The position numbers and the translations under genes are program-made. From the NCBI GenBank assembly GCA_964016885.1, contig OZ024761.1, positions 21,948,001 through 22,012,000 on the forward strand: a stretch of DNA of 64,000 nucleotides, given 5' to 3'. This document shows positions 25,869-37,562 of the stretch, in pieces (the first letter of the stretch is position 1; each line of letters opens with the position of its first letter). Under the pieces are notes generated by a model. The model searched no databases, was not told the origin of the DNA, and saw only the letters and a list, made by a program, of their open reading frames with translations. Source of the stretch: Eledone cirrhosa. Taxonomy: Eukaryota.

Positions 25869-25915
25869 TATTTTATTATATATATTTCAAGGGTATTTTG
25901 GTACGCTCTCATCAG
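25869..25915 (-). ncRNA. Hammerhead motif of the same family, 5' strand of stem I replaced by (CA)n
   Basis: Minus strand: CTGATGA-gagcgta-ccaaaa-taccctt-GAAA-tatata-TA-ataaaata; same 3' tail and same C.C mismatch as 33946-34012. Confidence 0.7.
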
Positions 25916-28900
25916 GTGTGTGTGTGTGTGTGTGTGTGTGTGTGTGTGTGTGTGTGTGTGTGTGTGTGTAATAGTAACGAGAGAAAAAACACATAATAAA
26001 TTATGTCAGCTAATAAGGGAGCTCCCTGGATCATAGGGTCTTATTGTGAGTGTTATGACTGTTTATGTCGCGAAACTTTGCGGTTCGCTAAAAGGAAATT
26101 GATAAAACAAGCTCTGGTGTTGGTTTGATCGACTACATTATGGCGGTACAAATACACACACACATACACACGCATACACACACATACACACACATACAGA
26201 CGTGTCGGTTCCGACGACGAGTACTTCGGTTGATTCGACCAACGGAACAGCCTGCTAGTAAAATTAACGTGCAAGTGGCTGAGCATTCCACAGACACGTG
26301 TTGTACCCCCCCCCCCCCCCGCGGAAATTAAGTGATGGCTGGCTGCCGTGTTTTGAAATAGGGGTTACCGTACAATCAGCTAGGTGGATCTGAAGCATTG
26401 GTAGATGAAGTGTCTTGCTGAAGGACACGACGGGATTTAGGCTCACCTCCTTAGGATTGTCAGCCAAGCACCGTAGCCACTAAGCCACGTGCCTACACAC
26501 ACTTACAGAGAGAGAGAGAGTGGCACACACACTGACACACACACTGACACTGACACACACACTGACACTGACACACACACTGACACAGACACTGACACAC
26601 ATTGAATGTTGAAGCTATTTAAGTTTTAAGAGTATTTAACAAGCTGGGTTAGTATTGTTGCCTCATGATTTAATAAAAGCACATCCTCATGTGACTTCAC
26701 TAAGGTCATCATAGGTGATGATGATGATGGTGGTGGTGGTGGCGGTGAGGTCATTCCAATGTTGACTTGTAAATGTAAACGAGAATGTTTATTCAGCTAT
26801 ATATATATATATATATATATATATATATGTGTGTGTGTGTGTATGTATATATATATATATGTATGTATATACGCACACACAAACACAGATGCACTCTCAT
26901 ATATATAGATGTAGTGTGTGTGTGTTAGATATATATATATATATATATATAGATATATATATATATAGAGAGAGAGAGAGATATGCCATATCGTAGAAAT
27001 GGCAGGGAGTGTGAACGGGGCGGGTGTTCTCTCCTTCATTTCTGCCTTCTGAAAGATTACACTAATTCTAATGACTTGTTTATTTAATTCGTTGATTACA
27101 GTGCACGCACGCACGCACACTTTCTCTCACACACACACACACACACACTCTCTCACACAGACACACACTCACCATTGTGTGTGAATAAATTGAATGTTGC
27201 GATCCGTTATTTTCGGTGAAGGTATTTCCACCCTCTTGTGCCTTGTCATCTACTTCGAATGATGTATAGTTATTTAGAGTCGCCTTCTTCACCATCGCAG
27301 TATATATAGATATATATATATACACACATATATATATATATATATATATATATATATATATATATATATACACATATATATATATACACATACACATACA
27401 CATAGATGCATAGATGCACACTTACATACACAAACACACATATATATAATTTACAGATATGCATGCATACATACGTACACTTACACACGCATATATATGT
27501 ATATATATATATATATATATATATATATATACATATACACACACACGCACACACACATATATATATATATATTTATATTTATATATATTATTTATTTATC
27601 GCGCTTGTCTTCTATTTCGTAATTTTCCGTAATTTGCTGTTTAAGTCCCTCCTCTCACTTTTCCTCTTCTCTTCCGTCACTCTCTCTCTTTCTTTATCCA
27701 TTCCTCCCCCTTCCTCAATATCTCTATTACTTTGCCTCTTTCCTCCCACCACCACCACTCTATTTAATGTGTATGTTCACAGTTGTAAAAACTTCCCTTT
27801 CTTTCTCTCTCAAATTCATCCTCCCCCTACTCCCCCTCTCTTCTCTTGCTATCATTCCCCCACCCCTCCTTTTTAAATACCTGTCTTTTCTGTTCCTCCT
27901 TCTCTCATAACCAACCCACCCTCTCTTTATCTCCTTTCCTTTCTCTTCTCTCGCTACTTGTTTTCCTCCCCCTCTCTCTCACTCTCTCTCTCTCTCTCTC
28001 TCCTCTCCCAGTTCCTCCCTCCCTCCCCCCACCTTGTGTTTCATTCTGACTCCATTGCTCATCTTCAAACTGCCAAGTCCTACCAACCCCTCACCCCCTC
28101 TTCTACCACTACACCACCACCAAACACATCCACGTCCATCAACACCACCGCAAAACGCGTCCACCACAATATCACCACCGTCTCCACCACCACAATATCA
28201 CCCCCGTCTCCACCACCACATCACCACCGTCTCCACCACCACAATATAGCCAGCACTACCATCATCAATACCACATTACCACCAAACACGTCCACCACCA
28301 CCACCACCATACTACCTCTATAGGCAGCAGATTCTTGATGTCAGCGTGTGAGCCTGGCTGTTTGTTGCACTTTTCAACGATGTAATGTAACTAACGTACA
28401 CGTGTGTGTGTACATGTGTACGTGTGTACGTGTGTGTGTGTGTGTGCAGGAGCACGCTTACGCACACTTTGCTTTCCAGTCGCCGTCTTGCAGCAGTTTG
28501 ATCGGACACACACACACACTTATGCATACGTACATACATGTCTATGTGTGCATATATATATATATATATATATATATATAATGGTGGTGGGTGATTATTG
28601 TAAACTAGCTTATTAAAGCGGATTAGATGATAATGTTTAGGTGAATAACGGTAAAGTGTACCCCGGAGAATGAGGTTACGGGGGTGTGTCGTTATTTTAA
28701 TAATAGTTGTTTCTACTTTTGGCACAATGCCAGCAATTAATCCAGTGTATTACTGGTACTTTTATTTTATCGACCCCGTAAGGATGAAAGGCAAAGTTAA
28801 CCTCGGCGGGATTAATAATAATACAAGCTGCTGGTCACAGCAGAGAGATTCTTCCTTTTAATTCAATCGATTTAGATATTTATACATACATCTTACCTTT

Positions 28901-30686
28901 TCTATATAACTGCTTGACGAAACAGATGCATATAATATTCTACATAAACACCTCTCTCTCTCATGTGTGTGTGTGTGTGTAATGAATTGTTTTACTGGCT
29001 TCACTCAACAGACTGGCCATGCTGGGACACCACCTTGATTTAGTTGATCGTATTGAACCCAGCACCAATTTTTATCGATATTTTTTTCTTGGCTAACCGC
29101 TACGCTACGGGACACGCACACACACACACACACAGGGAGAGTGAGAGAGTGTATGTGTATGCGTGTGTGTATGCCATGCTGAGACCGGGGAGATCACAAA
29201 TCGTGGGAGTACTCAATGCATGAGAAGATGCAGAGTGGGTGTACACCCGTTAAAAAGACTTGCTGCACACCGCTTGGCGTCACGGTCGGGTTCACCCCCC
29301 CTCTCTCTCTCTCATATATATATATATATATATATATATATATATATATATATATATATAATGTGTGTGTGTGTGTGTGTTGAAAATATTTTGTTGCCGT
29401 ATTTAATTACCTATCAAACCCTAATTGATCAATCAGTTCTGATCGACGAAATGAACAGAACAATAATCGCATTGATAAATATATTTGTGTGAACAACGCC
29501 AAGTGTTAATAATGGCTGACTCGACTGCTTTTCTTTATTATTAACTTTCCCTGATATCCTGCTGGGATCGATAAATATAACAAATACCAGTGAAGTACTA
29601 CGGCCGGTATTATCGATACCTCAGCCTTCTCTCCTATATTGATTGTCGTGTACCTTAATGAGAAACTAACAGAATGAATAACCGTAGGGGTTAATTTTGT
29701 TTCCGGTTTTTTACGTTGAGATCCCTCACCAAGAGGTAGATCACCTTTCATTCTCTGCCCCCTAGGGTCGATTAGATATTGTATTTTCCCCCCACCAGTG
29801 GAACAATTGTAGGCCACCTCTGCTCATCTGTTTTTTGGGGGTCTGGTGGGGAATAATACTTATTTGAAGAAATAAACGTTTCTAATTTCGATACACGATC
29901 ATCGATTTGGGGGGGGGGGTCTAAATAGATTAAATGGACCCACAATACTTTAGCACCGAGTGGTACTTCACTTTATTGACCCCCCTCCCCCACACACCTG
30001 AAGGATGAAAAGCAAAGTTGGTCTAGGCAAGGATTTGATCTGAAAACAGAGTCGGAAGTGGCGATTCTTTACAACGAATACAGTCTAAACTATTTAAGTG
30101 TCTACGGAAGCTCTTTCTATTAGCTTAACAATAATTGTTGTTTTCTCCTTATTTTTTTATCGTGTTACATTGGCAAATATTGCATTGTGGGTGATTTAAA
30201 TATGGCTGCGCACAGTGAAGTCCATGTGTTGGGCTTGGTAGCTTTATATATATGTATATATATAAAGCACACACCCCCACTCTCAACAGCGTGAACCTAA
30301 TAAACCTTTATTTGTCTGCCTCTCTGTTTTGTTCCCGTCCAAATTTGCACTATATATATATATATACATATATATGTATATATATATGTATATGTGTGTA
30401 GTTGATCTTTTACACTGACTTTGCTGTCAGTATATCACTTCCTGCCACACCATCCCGCCTTCTTTCCTTTTTTATTCCATTTCGAATTCAGTCTGCCCCC
30501 CCCCCCTCTATTTCCTATCAACACAAGTTGAGATAAAATATTTAGGTAAACGTTTGTGTATGTATATATATATATATACACAAACACACATATTACATAT
30601 AAATGTTTGTGTATATATATATATATATATATATATATATATATATATAAATATATATACACACACACACATGTACTTACACACCC

Positions 30687-36257: not shown

Positions 36258-36455
36258 TATAATTGTTTCTACTTTTGGCACAAGGCCAGCAATTACCTCA
36301 GTGCATTACTGGTACTTTATTTTATAGACTCTTTCGTAAGGATGAACTGCAGAGCTAACCTCGGAGGGATTTGAACTCTGAGCGTAAAGGGCCATAACTC
36401 TATGCTGCAAAGCATGGCATCCGACGCTCTACCGATTACTGCCAAACCACCGCTA
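36258..36455 (-). mobile_element. tRNA-derived SINE family 1, near full length
   Basis: Reverse-complement match to 46675-46865. Confidence 0.82.
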
Positions 36456-37289
36456 TATAATAATACTAATAATAATAATAATAGTTCCCTAATTTAGGCA
36501 GAAGGCCAATAATTTGGGGGGCAGGGGAAAGTCGATTACATTGACCCACCACCACCCTCCTTGCTTCACTGTCCCCCACCCACCCCCTCTCTGTATCTTG
36601 TTTCTCTCCGTCCCTCCCTCCCTTCCTCTCTCTCTCACCACCGCCACTACTAATTCCGACTCTTGATGCGCTCGAACACACATACACAGATTAAACTGAC
36701 AAGACTGTCACACACTCTCTCTCTCTCTCACACACTCTCTCTTTCTCACTCACTCACCTCTCTCTCACACTCTCTCACTCACTCTCTCTCTCTCACTCCA
36801 TGCTCAGACACGGCAGTCTTCGAGACATCTTCGAAACACATTCCAGCATGCCATGCCTTTTAAAATTAATGATTTGTATGCACTTTGGAAATATAATGGC
36901 GGCGATGATGTGATGGTGGCGGCAGCGGTAGTGGTGGCAGGTTGGAGGAGATAGAGTAGTATTAGGAGGAGGAGGAGGTAAAGTAGAAGGTTAAGGAGGA
37001 GGATTAGAATAATAATAATAAAAATAAAAATAATAAATAAAATAAAAGTCTTTCTCATTCATTTGAAAATGTTGCGGGATCGAGGAAAAATACGATCGTC
37101 TCATTCATTTGAAAATGTTGCGGGATCGAGGAAAAATACGATCGAGTTACAATGAAATATATTTGTCAGCTCCCACCTCCTCTTTTTATCCTAGCTTAAA
37201 TCAGTCGTAAAACAGATCTCTCTCTCTCTCTCTCTCTCTCTCTCTCCTCTCTCTCTCTCTCTCTCTCTCTCTCTCTCTCTCTCTCTCAA

Positions 37290-37562
37290 TATATATATTA
37301 ATTCAAAATATTAATAAATATAGACATTCAACGTAATCAAAATATATTTTATATATATATTTCGGAGGTACTGTGCTGTTTGTTCAGTACGTCCTCCATC
37401 AAATAAAATATATAAATTGATGTGTGACATACCTCAACTGTGCTGATGGTTCAATACCAGTCTTGGCAGTATTAATAACTCCAGAAAACTTTTTTGTTGA
37501 GTGCTTTTAATCTATTGTAAAACTATATTCATTGATTAATCAATGAACCTTGTTTAACTTTT
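37290..37562 (-). mobile_element. Short hammerhead-bearing repeat, copy 2
   Basis: Same ends and same microsatellite flanks as 33890-34100, with extra internal sequence. Confidence 0.65.
37343..37412 (-). ncRNA. Degenerate hammerhead of the same family (core mutated to TTGATGGA)
   Basis: Minus strand: tatattttat-TTGATGGA-ggacgtactg-aacaaacagca-cagtacctcc-GAAA-tatatat-ataaaatata. Confidence 0.65.

Follow-up and report, generated by a model that had tools for sequence, protein, structure and literature searches.

Three hammerhead motifs in microsatellite-rich DNA

The stretch of DNA considered here, which we call the window, comprises 64,000 nucleotides (nt) of the Eledone cirrhosa genome (assembly GCA_964016885.1, contig OZ024761.1, positions 21,948,001 to 22,012,000, forward strand), and all coordinates below are positions within it. 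It is microsatellite-rich animal DNA with a GC content of 25-45%, and its only long coding frames belong to repeats and to fragments resembling long interspersed nuclear elements (LINEs). Within it lie three motifs that, read from their sequence, are type I hammerhead ribozymes on the minus strand, one intact (copy B) and two broken (copies C and A), and these sit in short elements bordered by dinucleotide repeats (Table 1). The original prediction had described their stem II sequences, a C·C mismatch at the fourth position of stem II in each, and loops unrelated to one another, all of which direct reading bears out; loop II has 12 nt in B, 11 nt in C and 6 nt in A, and differs between them.

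Table 1. Coordinates of the hammerhead copies, their parts and the adjoining repeats
Feature	Position	Strand	Remark
Copy B element	33901..34099	-	~200 base pairs (bp) between (TA)n tracts
Copy B type I hammerhead	33946..34012	-	intact
Copy B stem I	34012-34005 with 33953-33946	-	8 bp
Copy B core; GAAA	34004-33998; 33965-33962	-	
Copy B stem II arms	33997-33988 / 33975-33966	-	3 bp + C·C + 6 bp
Copy B C·C	C10.4 = 33994, C11.4 = 33969	-	
Copy B upstream strand	34016..34034	-	predicted pairing
(TA)n tract upstream of B	34100..34308	.	
(TA)8(GA)48 downstream of B	33790..33902	-	
Copy C element	37297..37565	-	~270 bp between (TA)38 and (TA)5(GA)36
Copy C hammerhead	37345..37413	-	damaged
Copy C core	37402-37395	-	
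Copy C stem II arms	37394-37385 / 37373-37364	-	intact
Copy C C·C	37391/37367	-	
Copy C upstream strand	37418..37435	-	same two blocks as B; predicted pairing
(TA)38 upstream of C	37566..37641	.	
(TA)5(GA)36 downstream of C	37217..37298	-	
Copy A	25833..25915	-	5'-truncated at core; divergent lineage
Copy A core	25915-25909	-	
Copy A stem II arms	25908-25902 / 25895-25889	-	3 bp + C·C + 3 bp
Copy A C·C	25905/25892	-	
(CA)27 in place of copy A's 5' part	25916..25969	-	

Copy B has three stems around the core with stem I open, the A15.1-U16.1 pair and an NUH site, and from hammerhead numbering cleavage is predicted after A33954, within an AUA triplet. The core (C3-U4-G5-A6-N7-G8-A9 with G12-A13-A14) is complete in A and B but not in C, which has U instead of C3, an extra G, and one base fewer before stem I near the cut site. 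Copy A lacks the 5' arm of stem I, and the (CA)27 tract abuts its core. When the three are aligned, pair 4 of stem II is C·C in 3/3 and pairs 5-7 are invariant, whereas pairs 2 and 3 read G-C and A-U in B and C but A-U and G-C in A; pair 1 changes on one side, being G·U in A and B and G-C in C. No extra base separates A9 from position 10.1 in A or B, and a register that places one after A9 was ruled out because pair 2 would break. Stem III is near-palindromic in copy B, and the self-complementary stem III segments are predicted to form duplexes of -3.6 (B) to -4.6 (A and C) kcal/mol and no hairpin.

Copies B and C can be aligned over their full length, with an identical start beside (TA)n and an identical end beside (TA)n(GA)n, and copy B is without ~60 bp found in the 5' part of copy C; loose ends at 34055-34067, seen in the contigs from public runs considered below, resemble this extra part. 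Beyond the hammerhead and a tail of loose similarity, copy A has nothing in common with them. There is (TA)n on both sides of B and C, whilst A adjoins (CA)n and a short (TA)n. The 200-270-bp elements contain no open reading frame (ORF), and GC is ~29% over the motif. The copies are single, with no tandem hammerhead units in the window, and a covariance model built from the three found no fourth copy there (next match 17.3 bits). At 38202-38220 on the minus strand, beside a TA tract, 19 bases agree exactly with copy B in its stem III/stem I 3' arm; having neither core nor tail, this stretch was not counted as another copy and may be a fragment or chance. The ends of copy B (33901-33925 and 34080-34099) are partly complementary, which predicts a rod fold of the whole RNA with the hammerhead at one end; this fold is weaker in copy C.

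All three hammerheads had been said to be followed by (TA)n(GA)n. Such a tract is present in each case, but it lies 35-55 bp beyond the motif, is short in A and is common without a hammerhead. In the window, TA runs pass into GA in 13/318 cases counted strand-wise, and as 11 of these 13 lack a hammerhead, (TA)n(GA)n is an ordinary compound microsatellite here, even if its presence beside 3/3 hammerheads is above this baseline. These compound tracts are strand-skewed (12 on the minus strand, one on the plus), with 7/12 inside a single array at 14.3-14.6 kb, and they are commonly part of (CA)n(TA)n(GA)n or (TG)n(TA)n(GA)n.

A hammerhead descriptor, composed after the motif had been seen, finds four sites in the window: A, B, C and one at +37958. 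Over 100 local shuffles its general form gives a mean of 0.42 matches per shuffled window, whilst the form that includes the C·C and the cut site gives a mean of 0.01 and a maximum of one, and it is on account of this latter rate that we take the motifs to be genuine. The additional site, 37958-38000 (+), is a weaker hammerhead-like string with a U3 core, a 6-bp stem II and no partner for stem I, and lies within the chance rate of the descriptor.

Conservation of the fold and retention of the mismatch

Copy B, or part of it, occurs in 13 of the 20 public runs listed, under ten organism codes, and the contigs of four of these runs (X1, X5, X6 and X7) were aligned, on copy B only. Run X1 alone gave 1,647 contigs, 516 of them at 99% identity or more and 570 at 95-99% (1,086 at 95% or above), with a summed depth over the motif of 1e5-8e5 against 10-30 for listed single contigs, although depth is no copy number. 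Judged from these contigs, the hammerhead repeat family is large and young. Eleven variants reach 3% in X1. Four lie in loop II (8, 40, 25 and 48%) and four outside the minimal fold, where the loop beyond stem I has three (49, 6 and 33%) and a place adjoining it one (27%). The remaining three are in stems and all keep the pair: two turn an A-U of stem I into G·U (20% and 13%), and one puts G-C for G·U in the basal pair of stem II (4.6%). None of the 11 touches the core or breaks a pair, for which, taking the minimal fold, random placement gives P 0.019 (over the span 33920-34047) or 0.003 (33936-34031). In this run no variant at either C or at pairs 2-3 reaches 3%, and neither does any two-sided change among the B-like contigs.

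The other three runs, from other organisms, contributed one (X5), four (X6) and four (X7) contigs of low depth, too few for covariation. No change at either C was seen in these nine contigs; one X6 contig is decayed, with a core change and a broken pair. An X6 contig of 155 bases joins the element's 3' end tail-to-tail to an inverted copy of the 5' part of B, at a depth of four, and may be an artefact. In X7 (organism D) a loose end at 33937 marks where the 3' half of the motif runs into a different tail, which hints at another subfamily. Relatives were found neither in viral contigs (0) nor, by a strict pattern, in metagenomes (0). A looser pattern matched 26 GTDB and 32 metagenome loci, which we attribute to chance: pairs 1-3 are formed in only 3/26 and 5/32, and the best model score among the 58 is 21.5 bits (E 0.11). 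Short-word matches (56 in GTDB, one viral) do not extend past 20 bases.

The covariation itself, which had been proposed as a property of three copies, needs careful interpretation. Pairs 2-3 do swap and remain paired, but since B and C carry the same pairs 2-3 this is one contrast rather than three, and the swap is reached in 58/500 shuffles, so that covariation among the three sequences is not significant. Considered instead as two double Watson-Crick swaps arising from four independent random substitutions, it has P 0.0016-0.0044, a value that would be higher if a single templated event were responsible. Together with the 0/11 disruptive family variants, this lends support to the proposal that structure was conserved in active ancestors: given that no common family variant breaks core or stem, conservation of the fold in the source elements is supported.

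The C·C stands differently. The probability of keeping both Cs between lineages is 0.49 (four changes over 14 positions), or 0.29-0.36 given that pairs are kept, and within the family it is about 0.8. As far as these statistics reach, retention of the mismatch is expected by chance and calls for no selection. The C·C is the family-wide source state rather than decay after insertion. A possible structural role for it, as had been suggested, is thus neither shown nor refuted.

Other repeats of the window

Several further repeats share the window with the hammerheads. A dispersed element in three copies (31596-31704, 32430-32596 and 46097-46282) carries a near-perfect 45-50-bp terminal hairpin beside (TA)n, with z -17.7 for one copy and arms that vary between copies yet remain paired; we presume it to resemble a repeat of the miniature inverted-repeat transposable element (MITE) or Helentron type. 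Perfect inverted repeats of unique sequence lie around or beside TA microsatellites at 30702-30851, 31297-31418 and 37642-37688, one of them directly upstream of copy C, which suggests frequent templated inverted duplications. A frame of 192 amino acids at 59700-60278 (-), 44-69% similar to 13 proteins and with related pieces at 52264-52644, is what we take to be the end of an RTE-type LINE. Related pairs of minisatellite arrays, with 48-bp and 72-bp units, lie inside dispersed repeats (2413-3495 with 43795-44607; 9179-9758 with 60777-61426).

Origin of the element and meaning of the mismatch

Metazoan Penelope-like elements are known to carry type I hammerheads in their pseudo-long terminal repeats (pseudo-LTRs) (Cervera & de la Pena 2014, PMC4209133). 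The motifs described here share with those the CUGANGA/GAAA core, a long stem II, a short palindromic helix III, AT-rich flanks, an occurrence mostly as dispersed single copies with covariation and compensatory changes, and, by prediction, a dimer-type design through the palindromic helix. They depart from the published type in their 8-11-bp stem I and in having no extra base between 9 and 10.1, although this base is also absent from some of the printed rows (for example those named Saccoglossus (2) and Marsupenaeus). The G10.1-C11.1 pair of the Penelope type is G-C in C and G·U in A and B, with C in 4.6% of the X1 depth; G·U occurs in printed rows. Conserved structure with covarying stems is already described for Penelope-type hammerheads (PMC4209133) and for retrozymes; at pair 4, where this family has C·C, the published sets show other mismatches.

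Within the Penelope-like elements, the features seen here lean by analogy to the Hydra clade, because of the (TA)n preference, the hammerhead near the 3' end and the 3-4-bp palindromic helix III. Of the Hydra-clade families listed, 26/27 (by eye) insert at (TA)n and the hammerhead lies near the 3' end (PMC8557442, 2021); the printed rows have a 3-4-bp palindromic helix III and, again by eye, A as the cut base in 12/26, as at the cut site predicted here. Naiad elements likewise favour (TA)n (PMC8557442). The clade itself is defined by protein features. Under the name of retrozymes, and with an origin from pseudo-LTRs, short non-coding hammerhead units and monomers of these in dispersed positions have been described (PMC7229834; 10.64898/2026.07.22.740005), and the parts of these accounts that deal with animal non-LTR retrozymes (Cervera & de la Pena 2020, PMC7229834; Li, Clavereau & Pollet) depict a similar object: a non-coding unit of ~200-300 bp and low GC with a type I hammerhead and dispersed monomers. 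The length and GC content given above fall within the 150-400 bp and <45% GC by which the non-coding unit of non-LTR retrozymes is recognised. Unlike those retrozymes, the present element shows no tandem unit in the window and no canonical loop 1-loop 2 motif, and it is known to us from DNA alone.

We therefore consider the motifs to be likely relics of a non-coding Penelope-derived element, either a solo pseudo-LTR or a retrozyme-like monomer, with a C·C that was inherited and is probably merely tolerated; we would put the probability of this at roughly 60%. On this view a source locus would give rise to RNA, in which two hammerheads, joined by their palindromic stem III, would cleave after AUA; a Penelope-like reverse transcriptase/endonuclease, provided in trans, would then place copies of this RNA in (TA)n. 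The pair 2-3 swap between lineage A and lineage B/C would reflect selection for the fold among source copies, whilst copies, once inserted, would decay. O. vulgaris is reported to hold 190 Penelope-like families making up 6.83% of its genome, in a repeat paper whose accessible part makes no mention of ribozymes and one supplement of which is without the element's words. We found no C·C case in the accessible parts of Perreault 2011 and Weinberg 2019, nor, in the literature covered, any account of this family or of a C·C so placed, a coverage that stops short of Lunse et al. 2017 and of Repbase/Dfam.

There are a number of points that weigh against this explanation. Room for selection is left by the published rows, 0/82 of which (0/56 and 0/26, by eye) have C·C at pair 4, and by the persistence of a free mismatch within a CpG setting in two distant lineages; published descriptors disfavour mismatches. 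No Rfam hammerhead family is among the 150 listed of 194 window matches or among the seven copy-B matches, which fits a hammerhead variant outside the curated models. Thirteen frames picked by hand, 11 of which come from a list of 171 for 24-40 kb, gave no significant Pfam match, and none of these 13 is a Penelope-like ORF with reverse transcriptase and GIY-YIG linked to the repeat. The element's words occur in no published Hydra, Naiad or Chlamys consensus, where line breaks may hide matches, and the one Hydra family listed from Octopus bimaculoides has, as printed, a hammerhead of different sequence with a fully paired stem II (PMC8557442). In addition, run X1 may be the source sample of the window, and cleavage, transcription and dimer formation are predictions for these copies.

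Other explanations have to be set beside the Penelope-derived origin. It is very improbable, in our view, that the motifs are chance look-alikes or snoRNA-like (small nucleolar RNA-like) boxes in AT-rich microsatellite DNA, with the swap a one-off templated mutation in dead DNA. The chance rate of 0.01 per window and the 1,647 family contigs with no common disruptive variant speak against this, even though the lack of an Rfam hammerhead match among those listed and weak C/D snoRNA matches to copy B (E 2.8-9.1) are in its favour; C/D snoRNA identity was rejected, as the scores of 11-15 bits compare with cut-offs of 36-70. Templated changes as such do occur, given that perfect palindromes are frequent in the window. 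It is somewhat easier to imagine, though still improbable, that the mismatch makes a tertiary contact or holds a metal in place of the usual loop 1-loop 2 contact, where stems I and II approach. Seven of the 11 variants fall in loop II or in the loop beyond stem I, both of which are thus free to vary, and this makes a conserved loop-loop contact unlikely; the canonical 4-bp stem II ends at pair 4. Among 56 representative motifs (PMC4209133), by eye, two have a 1x1 mismatch in helix II, both of them likewise at pair 4 (U·U and C·A), and three have bulges. This also means that 54/56, and 26/26 of the other printed set, have no 1x1 mismatch there, in line with what descriptors disfavour; in addition, retention of the C·C is statistically uninformative, and the minimal hammerheads of Penelope-like elements have been described as lacking tertiary contacts (PMC7761336).

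A third explanation retains the same element but sees in the C·C the tuned weak point of a folding switch, and here folding predictions leave us doubtful rather than dismissive. An upstream 10-base strand would take either the 5' arm of stem II, with G opposite C10.4, or the 3' arm, with G opposite C11.4, whilst a second, 5-base block would pair with the core, and the RNA would remain in the off state until something, such as the protein of the element, refolds it. In copy B, 34031-34024 is complementary to the 5' arm over 8 bp, through C10.4, and 34020-34016 to core U4-G8 or, as a stem I extension, to 33941-33938; in copy C the strand is predicted to form either 8 bp with the 5' arm of stem II or, with its 3' arm, 7 bp. 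Both blocks are kept between B and C whereas the letters between them differ, and the 27% variant at 34020 retains the off helix as U·G. With the native C·C, stem II pairs 1-3 are predicted to form with a probability of 0.00 in B and 0.01 in C; each of three Watson-Crick replacements raises this to 0.89-0.99, and removal of the upstream part raises it to 0.60 in B. Relative to the ensemble, the on fold costs 5.8-6.4 kcal/mol in native form compared with 2.6-4.0 with C-G. Equally good helices through both Cs arise in 48 (B) and one (C) of 5,000 shuffles, and in 16 (B) and eight (C) of 5,116 real 50-mers. A precedent of a kind is the lizard Penelope-like hammerhead that, as reported, cleaves only with its protein (PMC11167929), and plant LTR retrozyme and viroid RNAs block their hammerheads by a complementary strand as is predicted here, although theirs are type III motifs in larger circles, and ours is of type I and a prediction only (PMC7229834).

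This switch was, however, noticed post hoc and in two related copies, the upstream region being lost in copy A. The copy B hairpin energy is no better than that of shuffles (1,038/2,000; duplex 84/2,000), the 5-base block is also explained as a stem I extension in the on fold, and a neighbouring 7-base block shows the same conservation although it has no part of this kind. In copy C, stem II forms poorly even when the upstream part is taken away (0.18). Nearest-neighbour folding, moreover, omits Mg2+ and tertiary contacts, and the replacements were Watson-Crick pairs only, whilst metazoan retrozyme RNAs are, in the account available, mostly predicted to lack self-pairing that blocks the hammerhead (PMC7229834). 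In its fullest form, pictured as a very high-copy non-coding element of ~270 bp whose conserved C·C would be the hinge of an on/off fold, silent until a Penelope protein or a dimer refolds it, this proposal strikes us as unlikely.

The role of the hammerhead in Penelope-like elements has been described as unclear (PMC8557442; PMC7761336), and it is here that the family may be of use. If the C·C is only tolerated, then this is one more family of the kind already described. If the hinge were real, it would explain at the level of RNA why the cleavage reported for Penelope hammerheads is weak and depends on protein. With natural variation at every position and a mismatch that is fixed, so large a family allows an inexpensive test of whether Penelope hammerheads are tuned off.

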